The notes under the pieces were generated by a model. The model made no database searches. It saw nothing but the letters and a program-made list of their open reading frames with translations, and was not told where the DNA came from. Source: Candidatus Binatia bacterium (GTDB lineage: Bacteria; Desulfobacterota; Binatia; UBA9968; JAJDTQ01). Taken from it: 64,000 nt of DNA. The DNA lies in contig OY762897.2 of assembly GCA_963666515.2 (NCBI GenBank), positions 832,001 through 896,000 on the forward strand, given 5' to 3'. Below are positions 14,460-27,574 of the stretch, one piece after another (within the stretch, counting starts at the first letter, position 1; each line of letters opens with the position of its first letter). A program made the position numbers and the translations under genes.

Positions 14460-17150
14460 TCAGCGTGACGGCACCTCCCCGGGAACGAGACAGGCCAAGT
14501 TCTCGACAACTGGCAACGTGAACGGGAGTTCCAGGGCTTCTATCTGCGACTCGACGTACTGCTTTGCCTTTGTCATCAGATCCGCAACGTCACACGATGG
14601 GTGCACGTCCGCAAACATCGGGCTGCGGGGTTTGTCGGCCAATGGGTTCAGGCGCTGCATCAGTTCCCAGTCACGAACCAGGACCCATTCACCGTCGCCC
14701 TCCAGCCTGGTGGCCACGACGACGGCACGAATGGGGGCCGCCGAGCCGGTGACGCGGTCCTGTACCCTGAACACGAAGATCGGCGCGTCCAGGCCCCGGA
14801 CTGCGCCGAAAGCGCCGTTCAGTTCCACCGCATCGTGAACCGCTCGGTCGACGACCCGCAGTCCGACGCCAGCGACATCTTCCCCGTCCTTCGGTTGTGT
14901 TTCCCGGGCGAAGATAAGGTCGTAGCGATTCACCACGGCGATGGAGAAGTCGTCTCTCCACTCTTCCGGCGGAAGGAAGCTCAGACGCACATCCTCCGGC
15001 TGGTCGGGGCGCCGACCACGGACCGCCAGAATCGCCTTGAAGAACGGCACGAGATCCGGAAGATCCACTAAGGGGATCTGGCCCACTACCGATCCAAAGT
15101 CGAAGCGTGCGACATGGCCGACGAGATGGCGGACTGCCTTCACTGCGTCCTCGCCGCCAAATGTCGCGGTTTCCGTATCGAACCAGTCGTGGAGCGTTTG
15201 CCCACTGAGCGTGGGATCAGCGTAGGCGAACACCTTGGTGAACATGCCCGGCGATGCCATCCCGATCACGAGTTGGCGAATATCCTCGGGGTCGTCCATT
15301 GCCCCCCGAAAAGCCAAGTTGATTCGCTCCAGCTTCTCGTCCAGGAGATCCCAGATCCGGCTCTCCACCGTGTCCGGGTTTCGCACCGTGACTACATCGA
15401 CGGGGTCAGTTTGGCCGTAGCGGCTCAAGCGGCCGACACGTTGATGCAGGCGCATCGGGTTCCACGGCAGATCAACGTGAATCAAGGCGCTACAATGTCC
15501 CTGAAGGTCGACGCCCTCGCCAGCCGCTTCGGTCGAAACAAGGAAGCGCGCGTCCCCCCGGTTGAACCGTGCTGCCGCATCCTGCCGGTCTTCCTTCCAG
15601 CTCGAGATACTGCCAGACGAATCCTGCACATCGTCAAGGGCCCCGTCTCCGTTGATGAACGTCACACATCCGTCGCCGTAGCGCTTGTTCAGCGCGCTCA
15701 TAAGCAGCGCCTGGGTCGCCTTGTACTCTGTGAAGAAGAGCACTGACCTGTCGCGGAACTCTTCGTCGACCAGCGCAAGAATCCGTCCGATTTTCGTCTC
15801 TTCAGTCACCGCGTTTGCGGCCGCCAGCAATTCCTCGAGGGCTGGAATTTCGTTTGGATTGAGATCAACTCCACGCAGACTCTCCGCCACGCGTTCTTCC
15901 AGTTGACTGATCTCGTCCATATTGGCCGGATCGTCCTCAGCCTGCAGCTCTTGCAGTCGTACCAGATCCTCGCGCGAATCCTCCAACTTGGCCTTCGCCT
16001 GCTGCAGCCGGGCAAGTCGTCGAGCGAGGGCTCGTCGCACCGCCGCCACGGAGCTCGACGCCAGCTTCTGCATCGTAATCAGGATTAGAATCACCATGCG
16101 CCGATCCTGGAAACCGAGACCGGCCGCGTATGCTTTTCCGGTCACAATGAACTGAGTAAGCTGCTCGTAGAATCGCGCCTCTTGCGGAGAATATGCGTAC
16201 GTCTCTCGCCGTGACTGCACCGGGGTGAACAGCGGCTTGCCCGACATGTTCGTGACGGATTGCTTGTTGTTGCGGATCATCACGGTCCGGAGTTTTTCGA
16301 CCTGATCCTCAAGAGGCTCCCCGGGATCGAAGTCTTCTGGTCGAAGCAGCTTCAGCAGCGACAAGAATCCCGTGTCCTTGCCCCGATGGGGCGTACCCGT
16401 AAACAGCACCAGGGACTGTACTTTGCCTCGTTCCTGTAAGCGCTCCACCAGTTGATACGACAGCGTGCGGTGACCCTGTTCATCTACGTTCAAGTGGTGG
16501 GCTTCGTCGATGAGCACCAAGTCCCAGGGTTTTGCGTCGAATAGGCGCTCCCAACGATCACCTTTGTCGAGACGCAATGTATGCGCCGAAGCGACTATTC
16601 GGTCTTGGGTATTCCAGAAGTCCGAGGTTTTCGTATCGGCAGCGGGAACGTAGATCGAGACCCGGATGTCAAACATCTCCCGCAAACGCACTTGCCACTG
16701 TTCGACCAAGTTGGCTGGCGCCAGAATAAGCACCCGGCGCACGCGCCCCGCCGACAGGAGTGGCGTGAGGATGAGACCCGCTTCGATGGTCTTGCCAAGT
16801 CCTACATCGTCCGCTACCAGCCATCGCGTAGGCCACGATTCGAGCACGCGCTTGCAGACCCAGAGCTGGTGCGGCAGCAAGGCGATACGGGATCGGGAAA
16901 AGACGCCCCAAGCGTCGTTGACGGAACGAATGCACTCGCCCAGGATTCGCGTGACGACATCCAGAGCGGGGTCGAGATGTCCGGTGGCCACGCGTTCCGC
17001 GATATCCTCCAGCAGTTGGAGGTCGGTGGCCAGGCATTCCTCTATACCGTGCTCAAATCGGACCACAACGCTGTCGCCCTGATCCACGACGACTTGGCCG
17101 GGGCCGAAGCGGGGATGTCGCACTGCGGCCTTCTCGTCAAGTTGTGTCAT
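14460..17150 (-). CDS. SNF2/RapA-like SF2 helicase (896 aa)
   Basis: ADDVGLGKT, DEAHH, TGTPH, STEAAGEGVDLQ, QRVGRLSRYGQ. ATG 17150 overlaps the upstream TGA (TGATG coupling). Confidence 0.92.
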   Translation of the reverse strand: MTQLDEKAAVRHPRFGPGQVVVDQGDSVVVRFEHGIEECLATDLQLLEDIAERVATGHLDPALDVVTRILGECIRSVNDAWGVFSRSRIALLPHQLWVCKRVLESWPTRWLVADDVGLGKTIEAGLILTPLLSAGRVRRVLILAPANLVEQWQVRLREMFDIRVSIYVPAADTKTSDFWNTQDRIVASAHTLRLDKGDRWERLFDAKPWDLVLIDEAHHLNVDEQGHRTLSYQLVERLQERGKVQSLVLFTGTPHRGKDTGFLSLLKLLRPEDFDPGEPLEDQVEKLRTVMIRNNKQSVTNMSGKPLFTPVQSRRETYAYSPQEARFYEQLTQFIVTGKAYAAGLGFQDRRMVILILITMQKLASSSVAAVRRALARRLARLQQAKAKLEDSREDLVRLQELQAEDDPANMDEISQLEERVAESLRGVDLNPNEIPALEELLAAANAVTEETKIGRILALVDEEFRDRSVLFFTEYKATQALLMSALNKRYGDGCVTFINGDGALDDVQDSSGSISSWKEDRQDAAARFNRGDARFLVSTEAAGEGVDLQGHCSALIHVDLPWNPMRLHQRVGRLSRYGQTDPVDVVTVRNPDTVESRIWDLLDEKLERINLAFRGAMDDPEDIRQLVIGMASPGMFTKVFAYADPTLSGQTLHDWFDTETATFGGEDAVKAVRHLVGHVARFDFGSVVGQIPLVDLPDLVPFFKAILAVRGRRPDQPEDVRLSFLPPEEWRDDFSIAVVNRYDLIFARETQPKDGEDVAGVGLRVVDRAVHDAVELNGAFGAVRGLDAPIFVFRVQDRVTGSAAPIRAVVVATRLEGDGEWVLVRDWELMQRLNPLADKPRSPMFADVHPSCDVADLMTKAKQYVESQIEALELPFTLPVVENLACLVPGEVPSR

Positions 17151-20100
17151 CACTGCTCCAGGCCGAACCGACGGCGCAGTTCCGCGTTCAAGGCCACGTG
17201 TCGAAGGGGTATGTCGAAAGCACAATGGAGATTTGGGGTTTCCGTCCCCAACTTGGACGCCAGAAAGTTGAATATGGCACGTGCCTTCTCCGGATTGGAA
17301 AGACTTTCTTCCGACCTCAACCCGAGAGGCCTTAGGAAATCCAGGACCTGTTCGGAAGGAACCCAGCAGTACGGGAAGAGATGTTCGCCCGTAACAACTT
17401 CCAGACGCACTAGTTCTCGAAGTACCCAGTGGAGACCCATGTTGAGGGGCGCAGGCGGGGCATCGAAGTGTGTACCCGCGCCCGTGAGCGCTTCGTCGAC
17501 GCGTGGCGCAAGCAAGTGAGTGACTGAAGAAATGCTTTCAGGACGTCGGCCCGCCGATTTGAGCAAGCGAACATATACTGCCCGATACCGACTGAGTTGG
17601 TAGATTGCGGGAAACAGCGACATCCAATGCGGATACGTCAGCTTGGCCAAGGCGGTGTCGTGCCAGTCTCGCAGCACTCCCATCCAGGCATCGGCATCGT
17701 CAGGTGCCCTGAACACGCCCCACCATCCTTTCCTGTGGGCCAGCTCGAGAAAGTTTCGGTGTTGATCGTCATTTGTACGACCAAGGCTTCGGCACGCGCC
17801 TAGCACCAGCAGGGCGAGCCAATCATCTTCAGAATCGGCTTGCAGCCTGCCCGCTAGCCCGTCTCGCCGCAACCACTCGGGCCATACGTGCTTCTCGTAG
17901 GCAGCGATCACTGCCTTGCGCTCAGTGGCATCGTCCCACCATTCCACTAGTTGCCGATAGAATGCCTGAGAATCGAGCCCAACTGGCGCTGGCGGCTCCT
18001 CTGGAACCTGGGACCGGTCGGGAAACAGGGCACCCAGAAGTCTCTGGCGACGCCAAGGTTCCTCGCATAAGTCGCCGAGCATTCCGCGGACATCCTCGTA
18101 GTGCCGAAGCCACGGTGGGCGGGCGTTGAGAGGGACGAGATACGGAAGAACACGCTCTTGCAATTCTCCATCCAACAGATAGCGAACCGCAGCGGGGCGA
18201 AGGCCTGTTTCAAGGTCCATGTACCATTTCGCAATTTCGGCGGCATCAACGCGATGCTGCATCCGAAACCATCGGAATACGCTCCAATCTTCCCTGCATT
18301 CAATGTATGCCGGATCAAGAACCCGGGCGTCGGGAGCGAAGGCAGACCGCAGGAATTCCTCCCAGTGGTCTCCGTCGGCGTCATCCCGCAATACGGAGAC
18401 TTCTCGCAGCAGCAATCTTCGCAGTGGCTGAAGGCTTCCGTCCGCTGCTTGGGCTTGAATCTTGCCTCGCCAAGCTGCGCCGTGCGGATCGTTGGACATC
18501 AGGTTCCAAGCCGGATCTTGAGAAAGAGGGCGAATTGCGTGCAGCCGAGCCGGCGTCAAACGGTAATCCCACCGTCGAGCCAGTTCCGCCAACAGGTCGC
18601 ACGGGCGAAGCGGGGTCGAGCGGATGTGATCGTCCATTCCTGGGAAGTTGCGCAGTGGAAGGAGGAGCCGCTCGGTTTCCTCCGATACGACGAGGTGGCT
18701 TTCCAACAAACGCGCGAAATCTTCATCGTCCACTTCAGCGAGGGCGGCGCATAGCTCCGGGTTGTCCAAACCATCGACTGCGACTTTCCACGACATCCCG
18801 GAATTCAGCGGGGGCAACAGTGGGGAAAATGGCGCCGGAAGTCCGGTTGGCACGACGCCACGGGCGGCCATCCATGCGGATAGCCCGCGACCGTTCCCAT
18901 GCAATCTGCAAAGAAACATCCGGCGTAGCTTGTCGGAGGTCGCCGTGCCGGAAACGAGAGCCTTCCAGAGTGACGGCAGAAAGCTTCGACCGTCAACCCC
19001 AATCATGGGTCCATTGGGTTCATACGCTGCCTGTCGAGTATCGGCCAACACTTCGTGAAGGTTGAGCAGGCCTTCTCCGAGCGCTTCGCCGAGGTCACTG
19101 ACGGCTCGAAGGGTCGTATCGTCATCGAGCGACACATGGGTTCTGCCAGGGTCGAGCTTGAAGGGTCCGTTAACGACGTATCCGCAGCCCCAACTCTCGC
19201 TCGTGGGCGTGACGTTCCAGAGAAACGGCACATCCGGGTTGAAAGCGGTGGGAACGCCATCTCGAAGCCCGATGGCCAACGCTGTGGTACCCATATTGTC
19301 CCGTCCCGCGTCCGCAGGTCGGAAACGAAGGACTCGCCAGCGGCCGGGATGGTTGGGGAAATCGGTCTCGGCACCGATCGACCACCCGGGCGCGCCGTCG
19401 ATCTGCTTTCCGTCGAAGACGTGGGTCCCGGGAAACGGTCCGCCCTCCACAACGACTTCTTGCACCTGCCGTGCGAATACTGGCAACAGGACACGCGCGC
19501 AGGCAAAACGACCGAACATCTCCGAGATCAGCGTGTGTGCTTCGACATCCGAGCGCAGGGGCAGCCGGACGCGCGTTGCTCGACGGCCTTCAACCATCCA
19601 TGAATCCACATTGTCGGCGACGGCCTGTTCCTGCGGCAGTAACCCTCCGGCAATGGAGAAGGCGATGAAGCCGCTGACCACGGACGGAGACGACGAGACG
19701 AGGTGGACGGATTTGAAGCCGAGGCCAAAGCGCCCGGTGGTCGAAGATGAAGAGGACTCTCCAGGAGCCTCGCCGGGTTTGCCGCTCAGATTCATGAGCA
19801 TCATGAAATAGAGGTCCTGATCCCACTGACGCTCTCGCCCGGCGGGGAATACAGCGCCGCCAGAGTCGTTGATCGGACGCCCCCAGTGCATGATGTCCAC
19901 GGTGGGTACGCCGCCATGTTCGTGGATTCGGACAAAGAGACGACGGGTGGCAAGAGGCAGCGGTCCGCCGTTGATCTCGGCGGCCTCTGCAAGCGCGTCG
20001 TCGGCGTTCTGCACGAGTTCCAACAGCACGCTGTCGCGTCCGTAGCCGTAGCGCCGCATCATCTCGTTGACTCGCTTCCAAAGGAATGTCCGATGCTCGG

Positions 20101-23100
20101 GCGCTTCGACGAGGGACGCCAAGTGGTCCAGGGCTTCTCTCTCGATCTTGAGCTTGACCAAGTTGATCGGCTGTGCCTGCTCCCGCTTCCTTTGCGCCTG
20201 CTCGGCCTTCCTGAGGGCGTCCCTGAGCGGTTCGTTGTCCTTGACATCGAGCTGTTGAAGCGTGAGCGGCAGATGCGCCTTGATAGAGGCTAGCACGGGA
20301 GCGAGGTTCGCTTGGGAGGTGGTGCTCCATCGGGACCACCAACGGTTTACCTGCTCGCGGTCCAGCTTAAGGTACCCGCAGGCCCATCTCTCGACGGTGC
20401 CGCCGAGCAGGTGCAAGAGTTCGGACGTGGAGCGGTTCTGCGGCTCGACGTCACGCAGAGTGATCTCCCAGAAGGGGCCAAGCGGCTTGAGCATATACTG
20501 CGAGCGGGGGTACCGAATGGGGTCGATGGCGAACAGCGTGTCGTCGTCGGGTTCGGCTTCCATCTCCAGCTGTGATCCCAGGACATTGACCGCACTCACA
20601 CGGTCACTATGCGCGACCTGTGGTCGGACGAAGACACTGATATCTGCACAGGGATCCTGTCCGCTCGGGCCGACGAATTCGCTACGTATTGCGTCGATGC
20701 TGACGTCTTCGCCAAGCCATTGCTCAGCAAGCGTCGCGATAGTCCCGTGCAGGCCGCTGCCCAGCAAACTGAGGAATGCACCGACAGCGGCGGGCTGGAG
20801 TCGTCCACGCCAAGGCTCGAAGTACTTTTCCAACGTGTCCAGTCCGTAGCCACCCCAGCCGGGTTGGATAAGTTCCGGTCCAGGGCTCCGGTCGTCGCCG
20901 GTAAGTTGGAGAATTGGGCGGAGTTCGGAAACCAGGCGGTGCCGACGCGCGATGCCGGTTTCGGATCGTGCGACGTCGCGGCTCTCATGCCAATTGCCGT
21001 CCTGGGTCGGTAGGTGGATTTTTGGCAGGACATGCGTGAAAAAGTTTTCCGTCTTTGCGAAACAGCCCAAGAGTGTGAGGAACATACGCCCGTCGGAAGA
21101 TCCCTTCGGCGGTCTTTTGTCGGCAAGGCCGGTCAGCATTTGGATCTGACGGTTCGGGGGGATAGGCGCACAGAGTGCTTTTGCCAACCTCAAGAGCAGT
21201 TCCGAATCATCTCCGAGTCCACCGTCACCGTGTCGCAGAACATTCTTGACGAAGTGCACCAGCTTCCATCCGCGATGGCTGCTGGAGAGCGTCGTTTCAA
21301 GTGCGCACTCGAGCAACGGAACGGTGACCAGTTCTGGTTGCGGTAGGACAAGCCACGCGCCGTCATCCACCTGCGCAACCTTGTCGGAATCCAGGGCGTC
21401 GACCATCCGCCGTACTTGGATGTTGCGATTTGGTCGCCCAAGTGCTTCGCGGACCACCGGCTCCGCTACGCGCCAAATCTCTCGCTCGACGATGTCGGGA
21501 AGCCGCTTGTCCTTAAGGGCACCGGCCGCCGCGAGGTCGGCGATGGCATCCAGCACTGCTTGCGGGGCGACGAGCACCGCATCCGGCGCAAGACCCCCGC
21601 CATCGCGACGCGGGAGCCAACATCCGTCCCTCAGTAGTCCACGCAGTACACGGACTTGCGGCAGCGTCATTTGGCCGTCGGCGGGACATACCGCCTGCAC
21701 GATCTGCCTGGCAAAACGCCACGGACGCGAATCCTCCAGCATGAGTCGAAGGACGCCGTCGCGGTCCATGACGGGAAGGGACTCGTAGAGATGGGCAAGC
21801 TGGGGATACGGATCCAGGATGCGCACTTCTGCAGCGAGTTCCGGCGGCAATGGAAATTCGTCCGTCGCCCCCGTCGAACGCCGTGCGAGTTGATCGAACG
21901 CCCCGCGACTTCCGTCAACGCCCCGGTGAAGTGGCATCCTTTGCCAGCGTCGGCGATCCTCCGGTTCAGGGCTGTACAAGCTTCGGAGTAGAAGCAGTGC
22001 CTCCTCGTTGCCAAGCACCGTCCAGTCGACAGGTTGTTCCAGGCAGAGGCAGTCACCGAGAATCCGATGTAGCACTTTGAGGTCGGCCCGACTGACGGAT
22101 AGTGCGTTGGCGAGATCTTGTGAAATCGTATCGACCCACCTGCCTTGAACCGTGCGCCATGACTGGTCCATGAGTCGCAACAGGATGGCCAGTGCTCGCG
22201 CATTGTCGTCGTCGCCGTGGAAAAGCTCGGTATCCTGCCCGACGACATCTACCGCGCGCCCTGCAAGGAGCGCACGTGCGGCCAAACGAACACTGTCGTT
22301 GTCCGTGATGTTCGGCGCGAGCCGATTGAGCAGCCGTGTCCGATGGGCAGGCTCGGCGAACCGTTCGGCTCGAAGCACTGCAGCGGCCAATGCCTCTGGT
22401 GTGGGTGACGGCGCATCGGCGATGGATCCCACCACGTCACCGCTCACGAACCAAGCGGCTTCGTCGAGCGCCTTCGCAAGTTCCATGACGGCCTGCTTCG
22501 GATCGGCGAGTCGTTCCGGCCGGATTCTGTCTGTGCCGTTGGAGTCCGTAAACTCCGAAGCCGGACTGGCGAATACCCGGCGGTTCTCGATTTGGCGGCG
22601 CAACTCGACGATGGACCAAGCTTCCTCCCGATCCTCCGGTAACCTGACCGCCCGCAGCAACGGCACCTTAACCAGATGCTGAACCATGGGGTGGTTATGT
22701 CGTCGTCTGGATAGCAGCGTCTCGGCAAGGACAAGCCGGGAGTGCCGCAATGGCTCCGATTCGCCTTCCACTTCCAAGCGTCGTCCCAAGGTCAACAGCG
22801 CACGATCCAACCGTTCCTGGTCAAGCTGCGGGGCCGTCGGCGACCCCTCTGGACGCCGTCCGAACGGCAGCGGGAACAGCCCTTCGCCTATCATCTCTTC
22901 TGCAGCAAGCTCGACAACGGCCTGTTGGCTTTCCACAGGTGTTTCGACCAGCCACGCCTTCGGCAGCCCGTGGCACAGATCTCGCCACGCCTCCCGCAAC
23001 TCGTCGCGAGATTCTCTCGAGACTGAACGTCGGGTCGTATGGGCAAGCGCGCCGTCGCCGATCTTTCCCGCAAGCCATCGAGCGACTGCGGCGGCGCGTA

Positions 23101-24130
23101 TATCTCCGTCACGGGCGTCCTGACCGATGACATGGAAGACAACTCCCTTGATCCAATGCAGAGATTGCAGAGACCCGAACACGTCGCCCGGAATGCAGTT
23201 CAGGAGGCGTTCGAGCGGGTCGACGGTCCAATCGTCGAGGTCACCTGCGAAACGGGGGACAGCGTCGTCGATGAACACGTCATCGCCCGTGCGTTGGCTG
23301 CAAGGGTCCACGAACTGCCTGCGAACAGCCTCGGGCGCCTGACTCCACTTTGGGATCGACAGAACAGGACGTGCATTCGCGTCAAGCGCTCTCCATCGAA
23401 CCCCGTCGGTCGCAACAACTGGTAGGAGCCAATGTCGTCGGGTGACGAACTCCAAGCGGTTCTTGACCATTTCCGAGCCGATGACCGCCTCTAGCAGCCT
23501 CCGTACTGCGCGCTCGCCGACTCCATCTACCGCATTGGCGAGGGCGCTTGGCAGCAAAGGAAGCAGCAGCTCTTCGCACAGCGTCCTGTTCCAACGAACG
23601 CGCATGTCACGTTCACTTGCGGCATCGCCAATATCGTCGGTGACGCCGGGAATGGACCGGCGGTCCTGGGACGGCCAGAAGTAGCCGCACAGGATGATTT
23701 CCCAGGCAGGCGAGGGACCGTGGCTCTCCACGATCGCACTGGAACTCGGCTCGGGATCGTCGTCCAGCGGCAGGAACACGGCCCAGCGGAGCCGTGTTCC
23801 CGAAAGCTGGTCATCCAAGTCGCTGGGTCGCAGTACGGTAACTGCGGCGTGAGCGAGAGCCTTCCGCGGCACCGGGGAGTAGCGACCGTGTCGCCACTGC
23901 GGGGATTGCGGCCAATCGGGCTGCGACCGGAGTCGAGACAAGCTTTCGTTGCCGCGTACCTCGATTCCTGCGACGGACCAGCTCCGATTGTCGGAGATAA
24001 TTTCGCCCTCGAAGGCCTGGTCCGAGAAATACCCGCGGTCGTCCGTATATCGCCCGACCCATCCCACCGTCTGCCGGGTCACACACACTAGCGAGGCTTC
24101 GCCTCAGACCGACGAGGGGGTAAGGGGATT

Positions 24131-24234
24131 GGCTCCGGTCGCTTGTAGCAGGGATTGAATCCCTGGTCATGGGACCTTGCAAGGTCGGACCTCAAAGGGT
24201 CAAATGGGCATAAAAGCCCGAAGCAACCGGAGCC
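24131..24234 (+). promoter_or_regulatory. Highly structured leader (five-way junction) sequestering the RBS of the element ORF
   Basis: 13/14-bp closing stem (24131-24144 with 24221-24234) enclosing four hairpins; GGAG lies in the 3' arm just before ATG 24239. Confidence 0.65.
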
Positions 24235-24238
24235 GGAC

Positions 24239-25846
24239 ATGAGCCTACCACAAACCGTAGCGGAAGTATTGCGCGATCACGTGACGCTGGAATACGAGTC
24301 GGTGGATCGCCTGTACTTGAACCTGTATGTGCCGCAGTTGCAGAGCGTGGGCGGGGTAGTGGGGTATCTGCACAAGCACCATGGCCAGCGGTTTGCGTCG
24401 ACGGTGGCGCTGGCGCCCAAGAGTCGGGAGTTCGTGCAGGCGGTGAAGGACTTTGCGGAGCGGGAGCAGATCGAGGTGGTGCACTTCAAGAAGGGCCAGC
24501 GCAAGGACGAGGTGACGCAGGAGTACCTGGGGCGGTTCAAGGGAACCGAAGGGGTTTTGTACATCGGGATAGCGCAGGAGAAGGCCCGTGTGATGCGCAC
24601 CGAGCGGCGCCGGAACCCGGACACCGGGGTCACCTATCCGTGGGTGGTCTCGTCTACCGCGATGGTCAACCATGTGTATTTCTATTGCGTGGACAAACAG
24701 GCGGGGCCGTTCTTCATCAAGTTCTGCACCTACTTCCCGTACAACGGCAAGCTGTGCCTCAACGGCAACGAGTACGCCAAGTGCCAGTTGCGCGAGCGCG
24801 GCATCCCGTTCGAGGCTTTGGACAACGGCGTGCGCTGCTGCGGAGACCCCGAGGCGCTGCAACAGATCTGCGAAGGCTTCGATGCCGCTTTCATCGACAG
24901 ACTGGCGCGCAAGTGGTTCGATCGCCTGCCGCATCCGTATACGCCTCAGGACCGTCGCGCCGGTCTGCGCTACGACATCTCCATCCTGCAAGCGGAGTTC
25001 AGCCTGACCCAGGTGCTCGACCGCCCGGCCTCGGGCCGCGTCTTTTTCGAGGACGTGATCCGCGAGAACCTCGATCTCGGTCGCCCCAGCCAGGTGCAGT
25101 TGATCTTCCAGCGCCGGGTCACCCGGCGCACCCCCGGTCGGTTCCGTACCCGGGTCATCACCGCAGGCGTCACCCCTTCCTTGCACGTGGACTACAAGCA
25201 CTCGCGCATCAAGCAGTACCACAAGGAAGGGCAGGCGCTGCGCACCGAGACCACCGTCAACGACACCTATGACTTCGCCCTGGGCCGGCGGCTGTCTAAC
25301 CTGGCGGCGTTGTGCCAGGTCGGCTTCACAGCCAACCGTCGTCTGTTGCAGATAGAAACCATCAGCCACGACTGTGCCCTGGGTGAAGACGAACTCCAAC
25401 GCCATCAACGCGGCCTGGAGTTCCACGGACAACGCGCCTCGGCCCTGCGCTTCGCCGATGAGCGCGTGCAGGCTCTGATGCAGGCCCTGCTCTTGTTCAC
25501 TCTTTCGGCCCGCGGCTTCTCCAACCGCGACCTGCGCGGGCACCTCGGTGCACTCCTGGGCCTCGATCCCAGTCCAATGCGCCCGGGCCGAATGAGTTAC
25601 GACCTGAGACGCCTGCGCCTGCACGGCCTGATCGAGCGCATCCCCGGCGCCTACCGCTACCACTTGACCGAACACGGCCTCAAGGTGGCGATGTTCTACA
25701 CGCGTGTCTACAACCGCATCCTTCGCCCCGGCCTGGCCCATCTTGCGCCCGACGCCGTGAGCGGCAATACCAAGACCCATCGGCGCTTTGCCGCCATCAC
25801 CAGGAACCTCGATGCCATTTGCGATGAGGCGAAGCTCGTCGCTTAA
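24239..25846 (+). CDS. Putative transposase of unclassified type (535 aa; Rep_trans-like Y-K...R-E motifs, C-terminal winged HTH)
   Basis: Only coherent ORF in the element: VDRLYLNL, QAEFSLTQ, SRIKQYHKEGQALRTETTVN, and wHTH-like GFSNRDLR...SYDLRRLRLHGLIERIPGAYRYHLT. GGAG precedes the ATG. Confidence 0.75.
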   Translation: MSLPQTVAEVLRDHVTLEYESVDRLYLNLYVPQLQSVGGVVGYLHKHHGQRFASTVALAPKSREFVQAVKDFAEREQIEVVHFKKGQRKDEVTQEYLGRFKGTEGVLYIGIAQEKARVMRTERRRNPDTGVTYPWVVSSTAMVNHVYFYCVDKQAGPFFIKFCTYFPYNGKLCLNGNEYAKCQLRERGIPFEALDNGVRCCGDPEALQQICEGFDAAFIDRLARKWFDRLPHPYTPQDRRAGLRYDISILQAEFSLTQVLDRPASGRVFFEDVIRENLDLGRPSQVQLIFQRRVTRRTPGRFRTRVITAGVTPSLHVDYKHSRIKQYHKEGQALRTETTVNDTYDFALGRRLSNLAALCQVGFTANRRLLQIETISHDCALGEDELQRHQRGLEFHGQRASALRFADERVQALMQALLLFTLSARGFSNRDLRGHLGALLGLDPSPMRPGRMSYDLRRLRLHGLIERIPGAYRYHLTEHGLKVAMFYTRVYNRILRPGLAHLAPDAVSGNTKTHRRFAAITRNLDAICDEAKLVA

Positions 25847-26752
25847 ACTACCGAGCGTTACAACTCGCGATGGCCTACGATAGTATTCATGTACGAACGA
25901 AGTCCAGTTCAAATATCTTGTCTTCCTGAGTCAAGATCCTGTCGATCAAGGATTCTAGTCTTTCCAGGTTGCGTAGACTCTCCGGCCCTGCTGCACGCTC
26001 TGCTTCGATAGTGTGAAGATGCCCGCACTGCGCCAGCAGCAATGCGGCGGGCGTCGCGCATCTGATCCAGGCGCAGAGATCATCCGTTTGCGGGCAATGT
26101 GTCCCCAACCCGTACTGGTGACCTTCCACACCGCGATCCAGATGTTGGGGAAGTCGCAACGGTACCCACAGCAGGAGGCCGTTGCTCGAATTCCCAATGA
26201 GTTCCGTCGTCACTGACCGCAGCCGCTCGACGTCAATCTCGTGCCAGTCGGGATGCAGGGGATCGGCTTCTCCGCTTTCTCCGGTCCCCGCCCACGGGTT
26301 CAGAACGCCGGCACGCCACTTCCCATCCTGGGCTCCGATGTAGAGAAATGCCTCGCATATATGGAAGACGCTCTTCAACCCAATACCGAAGGTGCCGATC
26401 TTGCCAACCTCGTCCTCCTTGGATCCGCCGACGGCCTTATGCAGCGCCTCACGATCTTGGTCGGGGAACTCCCCGTCGTTCGCAACCAGGAGTGCAGGTC
26501 CGTGGAGCAGACTGTTTCGCGCATCGGTCCAACCGCGCTCCAGCACCGCGAGCTTGAGACGGCGTGCACCTGCGTCGTCGGCATTTTGGACCAGTTCCCG
26601 GAACAGGGCGCGTCCATCCCCGGCATCCTTGTAGACGTCAGCCAGAAGGGTCTGGATTGCCTTGATCTCGTCGAGCGGGCTTCGGACGATGCCGGAGTTT
26701 GGTCGGACATCGACGTCGGGCAGCCGTGCTTGGTCAGACCCGACCGTAGGCA

Positions 26753-27574
26753 TCAGTCGTCGAAGAATGCGAGAGTCCGGATCTCGATGCTCTCCCGCGG
26801 CGGCGCGTCCGCCGGGGTGCTGGGGTGCTCGAAGGCGGAATGGGCGGAAAAGCGCGCCCGGCCGTCGGTCTTCGAGTCGTAGCACTTGAAGACGATGGCC
26901 TCGTCGGGCTGCATGTCCGGGAAGTAGTAGAACCGGTGGCCGGGGCTGTAGGTCAGGTGGTAGGTCTCGCCGAGCCGGTTGGGGTGGGGCCGCACGGTGG
27001 GGATGAGGTCCTCGGTGGCGATGCTCTGGGCGTCGCACATGGCCAGGGGATCCCGCAGCACCGGGTTCAGCATGCCGCGCCACACCTGGACCACCGCGAA
27101 GCGGCGCTTGAACAGATCGTCGGCCTCGTCGGGCAGCAGGTCGCGCACCCGTTCCGGGCCGGACCACTCGGTGTAGTCGTTGTGCACGTTCTGGACCGGT
27201 GCCTTGGCGCCCTTTTCCTCGTAGCCGGAGCGCAGGGTATGGTCGAAGATCAGCACCCGGCAGGCGCCGGTGTTCTCCTTGATCAGCGCCTCCATCTCGG
27301 GATAGTAGACCGCCCGGATCTCGTCCTCGTCGAAGAAGTCGGTCATCTTCGTGGGCTGGGGCCGCAGGGCGAAACCGTGGTGCTCAATGGAGAGCTCGGG
27401 GTGGTTGCGGCCGTTCCGGACCGAGGCCGTGTGGGTCTCGTACGTCCGGTCCTTGTGCGGATAGCCGAGGCTGGGCTTGTCCCAGGTGGTCACGGGCCGA
27501 GGGCCGGTGTGCACCATGTAGTTGAAGCTCGCTTCAACGGCGTCATCGAGAGTTTCCGCTACCGCTGTGGCCAT
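26753..27574 (-). CDS. CmcJ/NvfI-family oxidoreductase
   Basis: YYPEME, RVLIFDHTLR, VHNDYT, VQVWR, PLAMCD, FKCYDS, AHSAF, PPRESIEIR motifs. Confidence 0.85.
   Translation of the reverse strand: MATAVAETLDDAVEASFNYMVHTGPRPVTTWDKPSLGYPHKDRTYETHTASVRNGRNHPELSIEHHGFALRPQPTKMTDFFDEDEIRAVYYPEMEALIKENTGACRVLIFDHTLRSGYEEKGAKAPVQNVHNDYTEWSGPERVRDLLPDEADDLFKRRFAVVQVWRGMLNPVLRDPLAMCDAQSIATEDLIPTVRPHPNRLGETYHLTYSPGHRFYYFPDMQPDEAIVFKCYDSKTDGRARFSAHSAFEHPSTPADAPPRESIEIRTLAFFDD

Follow-up and report, generated by a model that had tools for sequence, protein, structure and literature searches.

Fold-back inhibition in IS10 and IS50 shields the ribosome-binding site (RBS) in read-through transcripts, and the native transcript of these elements starts inside the pairing region and escapes the lock. 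The transposons of the IS200/IS605 and IS91 families, which move by single-strand or rolling-circle routes, have no terminal inverted repeats (TIRs), carry hairpins adjoining their ends and have a short specific target at both junctions, and they use HUH enzymes as transposases. The single-strand origins found in rolling-circle plasmids and in filamentous phages are segments of about 100 nt which fold into several hairpins as single-stranded (ss) DNA, act on one strand and do not need to overlap a start codon. For IS200 itself, passages of a published study describe a left end with a terminator hairpin and a 5′UTR stem-loop which sequesters the Shine-Dalgarno (SD) sequence and inhibits 30S binding (PMC4513863).

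The locus described here lies in a window of 64,000 nucleotides, the whole stretch of DNA analysed, and resembles IS200 in being a small single-gene element without TIRs, in which a hairpin adjoins the left boundary and a more internal inverted repeat draws the SD into a stem just ahead of the transposase start. An SD-sequestering leader, whose stable stem immediately 5′ of the transposase start takes up the SD, is present here as well. The locus differs from IS200 in that a four- or five-way junction, through its closing stem, takes the place of the single stem-loop as the putative lock, and in that the presumed transposase is unrelated, with no HUH/Y1 domain, a length of 535 aa and a predicted TBP-like core. 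As in IS10 and IS50, the region where translation starts is paired with a segment of the element end that lies upstream of it. The lack of TIRs, the hairpins adjoining the ends and the short target abutting them are shared with IS200/IS605 and IS91, although the transposase is not of the HUH type. Like the single-strand origins, the locus includes a segment of about 100 nt with several hairpins, but unlike them it shows no strand bias and is strictly coupled to the start codon. The features of the element are the following:

24088..25958, + strand: complete repeat block of the insertion sequence, bounded by CTAG at each end
24088..24116, + strand: left terminal motif CTAG-C-GAGGC-TTC-GCCTC-AGACCGACGAG, near sequence-invariant across clades
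24131..24144, + strand: closing stem P1, 5′ arm, GGCTCCGGTCGCTT, holding the anti-Shine-Dalgarno CTCC
24149..24165, + strand: hairpin H1, CAGGGATT-G-AATCCCTG, from the RNA fold; its stem covaries between clades
24169..24213, + strand: upstream reading frame of 14 codons, MGPCKVGPQRVKWA and a stop, starting in the H1-H2 linker
24173..24186, + strand: hairpin H2, GACCT-TGCA-AGGTC, a lineage-specific extra hairpin
24188..24201, + strand: hairpin H3, GACCT-CAAA-GGGTC, the middle hairpin of the family consensus
24206..24219, + strand: hairpin H4, GGGC-ATAAAA-GCCC, the last hairpin of the family consensus
24221..24234, + strand: 3′ arm of P1, AAGCAACCGGAGCC, holding the ribosome-binding site GGAG (24229-24232)
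24239..25846, + strand: gene of the element, 535 aa, presumed transposase
25847..25958, + strand: right end, with a hairpin and the terminal CTAG

The original prediction placed the folded leader within the left end of a mobile element, which agrees with both the repeat copies and the contigs that skip the element. The genome harbors nine copies, identical over 1871 bp and with unrelated flanks, and the nine insertion sites have nothing in common except CTAG. In contigs of three sequencing runs (X1-X3), position 24087 is joined to 25955 with 1867 nt skipped and four letters common to both sides; since these contigs lack this copy, the insertion is considered recent. The net gain from the insertion is 1867 bp. 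CTAG flanks the element on both sides, with CTA(G) common to both junctions; the element has no terminal inverted repeats, and its sole gene is that at 24239..25846 (+). Six of the nine copies are co-directional with replication, which amounts to no orientation bias. The number of left-end motifs equals that of full copies in five other genomes, and as for miniature derivatives, the element's own genome contains only a single decayed fragment. No joint of the right end to the left end (circular junction) is present among the contig joints listed, rare forms being dropped from contigs. Judging by these sequence comparisons, the element family behaves as an active insertion sequence. The element is a widespread and so far unnamed mobile element, and the literature searched, with ISfinder outside its scope, holds no description of it or of a transposase with a TBP fold.

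Both ends carry a hairpin one base from the boundary. On the left, the hairpin occupies 24093-24105 and belongs to a terminal motif which is nearly invariant in sequence across clades (consensus CTAACGAGGCYYCGCCTCAGACCGACGAG), with a compensatory change to GGGGC..GCCCC in the hairpin of actinobacterial copies. The right-end hairpin, ATCCT-GTCGATCA-AGGAT at 25936-25953, is one base from the terminal CTAG (25955-25958), and the family consensus of this end consists of the stop codon followed by AAACTTGACTCAA, 17-22 nt and GTCAAGGAATCTAG.

The leader was found in the window just as it had been proposed, with an outer stem between 24131-24144 and 24221-24234 (13 of 14 pairs and one C.A apposition), four enclosed hairpins at 24149-24165, 24173-24186, 24188-24201 and 24206-24219, all matching in coordinates and sequence, and GGAG in the 3′ arm at 24229-24232, followed by the ATG at 24239. 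Folded as RNA without constraints, the region 24125-24245 adopts this very five-way junction at -55.1 kcal/mol, and the comparison with shuffled controls, a check named beforehand, came out far in its favor, with a mean of -39.5 kcal/mol (sd 3.5) for the shuffles, a z of -4.45 and none of 200 as stable. Folding with DNA parameters yields the same architecture on the + strand (z -4.05, 0/200 shuffles) and on the - strand (z -3.89, 1/200), the single mismatch of P1 being C.A on the + strand and a G.T wobble on the opposite one. The five-way form holds for the fold of this element but does not stand as the general form, the family consensus being a four-way junction in which the same outer stem surrounds three hairpins, with four only in this lineage. 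Among leaders with parsed hairpins, H2 was found only in this element and in L010 and L023, the remaining leaders that fold into four hairpins representing alternative folds, and from the sequence (GACCT-TGCA-AGGTC beside GACCT-CAAA-GGGTC) it looks like a tandem copy of the neighboring H3.

The 14-codon upstream reading frame is out of frame with the main gene. A one-base deletion in a contig falls within the H4 loop, and the indels of natural variants affect the H1-H2 linker (at 24169) and a hairpin loop (at 24216), the placement of such indels in linker and loop being counted for a translational lock. A consensus scan of both strands over 23900-26100 revealed no sigma-70-like promoter, a result counted against a lock, and the sole terminator-like site on the minus strand of the same region is H4 read backwards, with no convincing terminator. 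The search against Rfam 15 produced no relevant match in the region 23000-27000 at E up to 10 and none at E up to 0.1 in nine loci of different clades.

Among the relatives, unconstrained folding of 56 distinct leaders recovered a long-range stem around at least three hairpins, ending at most 4 nt from the start codon, in 50. Leaders with the outer stem come from Proteobacteria, Actinobacteria, Acidobacteria, Verrucomicrobia and other groups, and in the stem-bearing relatives GGAG is always found in the 3′ arm; the burial of the RBS is borne out for this element and for nearly all its relatives. Conservation and covariation had also been named in advance as a check, and the structure proved to be kept across phyla with compensatory changes. 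In 27 rows aligned to a covariance model, one of which is a presumed false match within a coding region, 92.8% of the cells are paired versus 78.9% in shuffles and at most 48.8% in slid controls, and changes on both sides occur in 26 of 32 pairs versus 9.8 in shuffles, with none of 500 shuffles equal; in the H3 helix all five pairs have such changes. The acidobacterial group taken alone shows weak covariation with three double-change pairs, a value matched by 13 of 500 shuffles.

With a covariance model named R3, the leader was detected in 32 of 57 loci (E up to 0.01), and the extra matches of this model comprise four on the minus strand within the coding region of alphaproteobacterial copies and two mirror matches. 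The four coding-region matches were treated as false as they fold no better than shuffles (z from -0.2 to -1.9), and it is one of these that is included among the rows of the covariation counts. With the filters off, acidobacterial leaders match weakly, giving eight leader matches at E 0.007 to 1 among noise. The combination of MAFFT and RNAalifold applied to the 56 leaders recovered six outer-stem pairs only, because MAFFT misaligned the hairpins. The leader, which is absent from Rfam, qualifies well as a candidate motif family of RNA (or DNA) that would be new.

The sequences of the hairpin stems differ between clades and the loops are not conserved between them; the junction is variable in sequence whereas the terminal motifs are almost invariant. 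The sublineage of L025 and L032 (61% protein identity) has kept the terminal hairpin and has no junction, and the same is true for six members of distant subfamilies. Two of these six have leaders folding clearly better than mononucleotide shuffles, and in four of the six, a count without a proper control, the SD or the start lies in a predicted stem, an observation counted for a lock. One acidobacterial clade has lost the canonical ATG, and the ATG of the H1-H2 linker, which is in frame there, is the sole remaining start; this start is still enclosed by the junction, also counted for a lock. The folds of 53 distinct leaders contain 106 G.U pairs on the + strand and 105 on the - strand; the absence of enrichment on the sense strand is counted against a lock. 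Stability is higher for the + strand in 32 of these leaders and for the - strand in 21 (Wilcoxon p 0.54).

The 535-aa protein, the presumed transposase, has no family match in Pfam or NCBIfam, including the HUH Y1 transposase domain, and the Pfam search showed no DEDD/IS110 domains. Pfam searches with 29 family members gave weak winged-helix matches only, PF02486 and DUF7845 being absent among the matches up to E 10, and no PDB sequence matched better than E 0.1. Homologues number more than 8000, most of their contigs containing the complete element, and strains of Paraburkholderia or Caballeronia are among the carriers. The family comprises more than 10,000 cluster representatives at 50% identity; its named relatives are all annotated as “hypothetical”, the nearest clusters in the ESM Atlas are unnamed hypothetical proteins with scores of at most 0.81, and no distant relatives were found in the viral contigs scanned.

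The predicted model consists of a TBP-like two-lobed core (residues 1-380) and a winged helix (382-506). In the structure comparison it matches TBP (1mp9_B, Z 8.7, 179/189 residues aligned), RepSTK1 (4cij_A, Z 7.1, 190/267 aligned) and RepDE (4cwc_A, Z 6.9); the fold scores are middling, and a Z below 8 may mean a common arrangement only, according to the warning of the tool. Foldseek retrieved 4cij_B (E 1.6e-3, probability 0.99) and, among viral models, giant-virus TBPs and A0A345MNV4, the latter listed as a Rep_trans protein of an inovirus in passages of PMC13107129. Residues D23, E114, E253, Y327 and E337, located on predicted strands, show no or almost no variation in the family. The model suggests that the protein has the TBP-like fold known from Rep_trans replication initiators. 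A TBP-like core followed by a winged helix, predicted in our protein, is shared with Rep_trans (RepDE, RepSTK1; PF02486) and archaeal Rep-Arvir (DUF7845; PMC13107129), as are DNA ends with hairpins, and the acidic residues and the tyrosine named above are candidates for the metal ligands and catalytic tyrosine of these families. In contrast, the protein has no sequence match to either family and is encoded in a multi-copy chromosomal insertion sequence, not in a plasmid or virus.

The original prediction proposed that the leader could be a structured RNA, lock translation against read-through, or serve as a folded site in ssDNA. The structure and the burial of the RBS stand, the lock is favored, and the ssDNA or two-strand reading is kept alive by wobble pairs that show no strand bias. 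What favors the lock is the constant coupling to the translation start, together with one sublineage in which the junction is lost and the end hairpin retained. We consider the chances about even that the junction is a cis-acting mRNA leader blocking transposase translation, as in IS200. It would form the 5′ leader of the transposase mRNA in a TIR-less, CTAG-targeting insertion sequence, where P1 would pair GGAG, 7 nt before the ATG, with the upstream anti-SD segment GGCTCC and the inner three or four hairpins would keep the two P1 arms together. Any transcript with the whole leader, whether the element's own or a host read-through, would be poorly translated, keeping the transposase scarce. 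The region would have to be transcribed as one RNA, 30S binding would be blocked, and selection would maintain the lock. The variable junction between invariant ends fits a constraint on structure only, with protein recognition placed at the ends, and as L025 and L032 keep the end hairpin without the junction, transposition probably does not depend on the latter as a core cis site. The closing stem alone would suffice for a lock, so the keeping of three inner hairpins is unexplained and counts against it.

It is rather unlikely, in our estimation, that the junction instead acts as folded ssDNA in an element moving via a single-stranded intermediate, in the manner of IS200/IS605, IS91 and rolling-circle replicons, where it would offer the transposase or a host protein a scaffold or prime the complementary strand like the single-strand origins of rolling-circle plasmids. 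The equal architecture of the two DNA strands, with z about -4, and wobble pairs without strand bias in 53 leaders speak for such a role, although a DNA site used on one strand should bias G.T pairs by strand, and none is seen. The absence of TIRs, hairpins 1 nt from both boundaries and the short CTA(G) at both junctions point the same way, as do the predicted core with the TBP-like fold of Rep_trans rolling-circle initiators, whose middling scores (Z < 8) may reflect a common arrangement only, and the predicted winged helix in the same layout as in Rep-Arvir, the origin of which is described in passages of PMC13107129 as a DNA hairpin. Against this, the junction is always located exactly at the translation start and not at the ends, it is missing in L025, L032 and the six distant subfamily members, all of which have the terminal hairpin, and the orientation of the copies relative to replication is unbiased (6/9 co-directional).

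Equal maintenance of pairing on both strands would be directly explained by a sense leader and a complementary antisense RNA, each with three or four hairpins, meeting by loop-loop contacts, of which art200 against the IS200 leader is a known example; RNA I and RNA II of ColE1 are another folded sense/antisense pair. Such an arrangement would also account for the conservation of several separate hairpins with exposed loops, but there is neither a promoter-like site nor a convincing terminator on the minus strand, and the loops, not being conserved between clades, are neutral for a cis-encoded antisense RNA and give no positive support, so we regard it as improbable. A guide or bridge-like non-coding RNA that directs a recombinase by base-pairing both with its target and with the ends of the element, as in the IS110 family, is suggested by the structured, conserved, non-coding segment beside a recombinase gene in the end of a TIR-less element. 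It appears highly improbable, as the nine insertion flanks share CTAG alone, leaving no extended target, the target is CTAG throughout despite loops that differ from clade to clade, and the protein lacks DEDD/IS110 Pfam domains and has a different predicted fold. Unlike the systems with IS110 bridge or seek RNA, the element has no DEDD (RuvC-like) recombinase and no loops complementary to an extended target.

The RNA and ssDNA roles may also be combined. Tentatively, and with the likelihood still on the lower side, the element would represent an unrecognised transposon class with a TBP-fold tyrosine nuclease similar to Rep_trans and Rep-Arvir, whose junction acts as both RNA and ssDNA. The nuclease would cut between CTA and G next to the hairpins on single-stranded DNA, so that transposition of the single-strand or rolling-circle kind would have a second route without an HUH enzyme. 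The junction RNA would lock translation, and the ssDNA of either strand would serve the transposition intermediate, for example by priming or as a protein scaffold; such a dual use would explain the symmetric pairing on both strands.

Hiding the RBS in a structured leader is an established means by which insertion sequences keep themselves silent, and the present leader is an elaborate four- or five-way junction covarying across many phyla. The element also flags a very large protein family without a functional name. Confirmation would allow many “hypothetical” genes located on short metagenome contigs to be annotated as transposases, and would open a new DNA mobility mechanism to testing, for which the target (CTAG), the ends and the regulatory leader are all defined.

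The junction upstream of the element gene had been predicted from the sequence alone as a closing stem around four hairpins which buries its own RBS, and all the sequences and coordinates of the original prediction match the window. The features are as follows:

24088-25958, the element (repeat block of the insertion sequence)
24131-24144 paired with 24221-24234, closing stem P1
24149-24165, hairpin H1
24173-24186, hairpin H2 (the extra one)
24188-24201, hairpin H3
24206-24219, hairpin H4
24169-24213, plus strand, upstream reading frame of 14 codons (MGPCKVGPQRVKWA, then stop)
24239-25846, the sole gene of the element, 535 aa

Folded as RNA without constraints, 24125-24245 adopts the same five-way junction, with an energy of -55.1 kcal/mol versus an average of -39.5 (sd 3.5) for 200 dinucleotide-preserving shuffles, none of which was as stable (z -4.45). 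The RBS is indeed buried: GGAG (24229-24232) belongs to the 3' arm of P1, seven bases ahead of the ATG at 24239. Folding with DNA parameters gives the same architecture on both strands (z -4.05 for plus and -3.89 for minus). The 14-codon frame begins in the single-stranded H1-H2 linker, crosses H2 and H3 and ends in the H4 loop; an ATG in this linker is present in many relatives too.

The 1871-bp block has nine copies in the genome, 100% identical, with unrelated flanks which, when compared, have nothing in common except CTAG. It starts and ends with CTAG, contains no terminal inverted repeats, and carries a hairpin one base from each boundary, namely CTAG-C-GAGGC-TTC-GCCTC on the left and ATCCT-GTCGATCA-AGGAT-T-CTAG on the right. 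In three of four public sequencing runs of the same organism (X1, X2 and X3, but not X4) one contig joins 24087 to 25955, skipping exactly 1867 nt with four letters compatible with either side; this joint represents the empty site, so the window's copy is recent. Excision of the 1867 nt in silico restores an open frame of 2788 codons on the minus strand (17150-24088 plus 25959-27167), and this copy therefore interrupts a very large gene, the uninterrupted form of which is found in contigs of X1-X3. In all four runs word depth rises 9- to 10-fold from the flanks to the element, and loose contig ends at both boundaries (24085-24088 and 25958-25961, X1-X4) run into several other flanks. The element is an active insertion sequence so far without a name, and we provisionally consider it undescribed, a literature search outside ISfinder and subscription journals having found no account of it or of a TBP-fold transposase.

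Some of the flanks reached by these loose ends in X1-X4 do not correspond to any of the nine assembled sites, suggesting that the element has additional or other insertion sites in the samples concerned. Run contigs also contain clusters of base differences inside the element gene (24424-24475 and 25033-25090), hence a second, slightly diverged subfamily coexists with the first. Besides the nine copies, the genome holds one decayed fragment (G000:C1:2645461-2645643), made up of positions 88-180 fused to 507-599 (~90-92% identity), and no miniature derivatives. Copy orientation is uninformative, six of nine copies being co-directional with replication as judged by origin and terminus from cumulative GC skew. 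The skew itself changes abruptly close to its minimum (more than 1 unit inside 200 kb; G000:C1 ~3.8-4.0 Mb), perhaps because the region is strongly skewed or as an effect of the assembly.

The 535-aa protein shows at most a sub-threshold winged-helix match in Pfam and no match in NCBIfam and PHROGs; 29 diverse family members again gave weak winged-helix matches in Pfam and nothing else. It has at least 8000 relatives among 90% clusters, all 8000 scored candidates passing E 1e-3, and 10,355 representatives among 50% clusters at E up to 1e-3. Among the 120 matches listed, "hypothetical protein" is the sole name given, and most lie on contigs of about 1.8-2 kb. Matching genes in plasmid records are hypothetical, uncharacterized or unannotated, with the one exception of a distant one named ArsR regulator. 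In the window's own phylum, 19 of the 401 genomes sampled contain a match.

The AlphaFold model (pLDDT 84.5 for the whole protein; pLDDT 90.0 and pTM 0.88 for residues 1-380) has a two-lobed, TBP-like core followed by a PadR/MarR-like winged helix at residues 382-506 (Z up to 9.5). The best structural match of the core is TBP (1mp9_B; Z 8.7, rmsd 4.5, 179/189 residues aligned), and it also matches two Rep_trans initiators, the rolling-circle initiator RepSTK1 (4cij_A; Z 7.1, 190/267 aligned) and RepDE (4cwc_A; Z 6.9, 182/270 aligned). Foldseek against PDB placed 4cij_B at the top (E 1.6e-3, probability 0.99), with nothing at E 1e-3 or better, and against viral models it returned giant-virus TBPs and A0A345MNV4, described in one report as a Rep_trans protein of an inovirus (PMC13107129). 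The same report describes archaeal Rep-Arvir initiators as having a TBP-fold catalytic domain, then a MarR-like winged helix, with one tyrosine and two glutamates essential (PMC13107129); the modeled element protein has the same order of domains. D23, R24, Q113, E114, Y147, Q251, E253, K325, Y327 and R335 are invariant and E337 nearly so, all on predicted strands. The fold scores are middling and no sequence match was found, so the protein is regarded as a putative nuclease.

Conservation was assessed in 80 homologous loci from named genomes of Proteobacteria, Actinobacteria, Acidobacteria, Verrucomicrobia, Planctomycetes and others, 58 distinct upstream regions being kept as having the gene start and sufficient upstream DNA. 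Without L025 and L032, which have no junction, and the 5'-truncated copy L082, the leader set comprises 56 sequences (55 relatives and the window). The unconstrained fold is a long-range stem enclosing at least three hairpins in 52/56 leaders, and the stem ends at most 4 nt from the aligned start codon in 50/56; in the remaining six (L018, L021, L064, L074, L076 and L083) the MFE fold is an alternative one, with the canonical helices readable in the sequence. The family consensus is a four-way junction. Among leaders with hairpins parsed, only the window's element and L010/L023 possess a real fourth hairpin, which resembles its neighbor and probably arose by tandem duplication. Hairpin stems vary in sequence by clade with pairing maintained, as in the middle hairpin (GAGCT/AGCTC, GACCCT/GGGGTC, GACCGCT/AGCGGTT, TTGACCG/CGGTCGG and ACCGC/GCGGT).

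The covariation among homologs proposed as a check is present: in a 27-row alignment, fitted to a covariance model and hence biased towards structure by construction, and consisting of 26 leaders and one false match (L054, minus strand inside the gene), 92.8% of cells are paired versus 78.9% in shuffles, and changes on both sides occur in 26/32 pairs versus 9.8. These values were matched by 0/500 shuffles, and slid controls reached at most 48.8% paired. The covariance models missed most acidobacterial leaders, and the acidobacterial group alone (83% identical) shows weak covariation (3 pairs, reached by 13/500 shuffles). Matches in alphaproteobacterial coding regions on the minus strand (L054:1860-1953, L039:1860-1953, L031:1860-1953 and L037:1405-1498; 23.6 to 40.5 bits) were rejected as chance, their fold being no better than shuffles. 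Neither the window nor nine loci taken from different clades matched any Rfam 15 family. The junction finding is real and goes beyond what could be seen in the window.

Across phyla the left terminal 29 nt (CTAACGAGGCYYCGCCTCAGACCGACGAG) hardly vary, the terminal hairpin showing one compensatory change, in Actinobacteria. The short right end reads stop-AAACTTGACTCAA, 17-22 nt, GTCAAGGAATCTAG. Most relatives begin with CTAA instead of CTAG, so at most CTA is common to both junctions of the element with its target, which reads CTAG. In acidobacterial, verrucomicrobial and some other copies (upstream regions of L057, L058, L061, L069, L072, L075, L076, L083, L088, L041, L052, L050 and L038) the terminal 20-odd bases are repeated inverted, perfectly or nearly so, 30-60 nt inward; a long hairpin can therefore form at the very left end, with the cut site in it. 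No such inverted copy is present in the window's element. Six distant subfamily members retain a terminal hairpin with AACC after it (clear in L092, L093, L096 and L101) and have no junction, with the SD or start inside a predicted stem in 4/6.

As to which molecule folds, we give about an even chance to a cis-acting translational lock as the main function, in which the closing stem of the mRNA would pair the RBS with a 5' arm resembling an anti-SD. This resemblance argues for the lock, as does the fixed position at the translation start. So does the loss of the junction in L025 and L032 (340-600 in both; 61% protein identity), where the left terminal hairpin is kept and the gene begins with an extension MRGKP(T/M)EK. 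In an acidobacterial clade (L036, L038, L044, L047, L049 and L085) the canonical ATG is lost and the sole in-frame start is that of the H1-H2 linker, lengthening the protein by about 21 residues; being still enclosed by the junction, it also favors the lock. A precedent is IS200, where the left end combines a terminator hairpin with a stem-loop in the 5'UTR; this stem-loop sequesters the SD and makes 30S binding weaker (PMC4513863).

A purely sense-RNA constraint is opposed by the symmetry of G.U pairs, with 106 in plus-strand and 105 in minus-strand folds of 53 distinct leaders; the plus strand is more stable in 32 and the minus in 21 (p 0.54), and the preferred strand differs between clades. 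Such symmetry fits ssDNA of either strand, a sense/antisense RNA pair or strong selection for full Watson-Crick stems. That the junction works as single-stranded DNA, a reading to which the hairpins at the ends and the Rep_trans-like protein fold lend plausibility, we hold to be rather unlikely, and a sense/antisense pair, with its parallel in IS200, quite improbable. A sigma-70-like consensus scan of both strands of 23900-26100 found no promoter, and none of the runs in which the element occurs is registered as RNA. A guide RNA is highly improbable, as the target consists of CTAG alone and the protein does not belong to the IS110 type. The window's junction is a five-way version, particular to its lineage, of a four-way junction that is conserved across phyla, and it is positioned so as to bury the RBS of the element's single gene.
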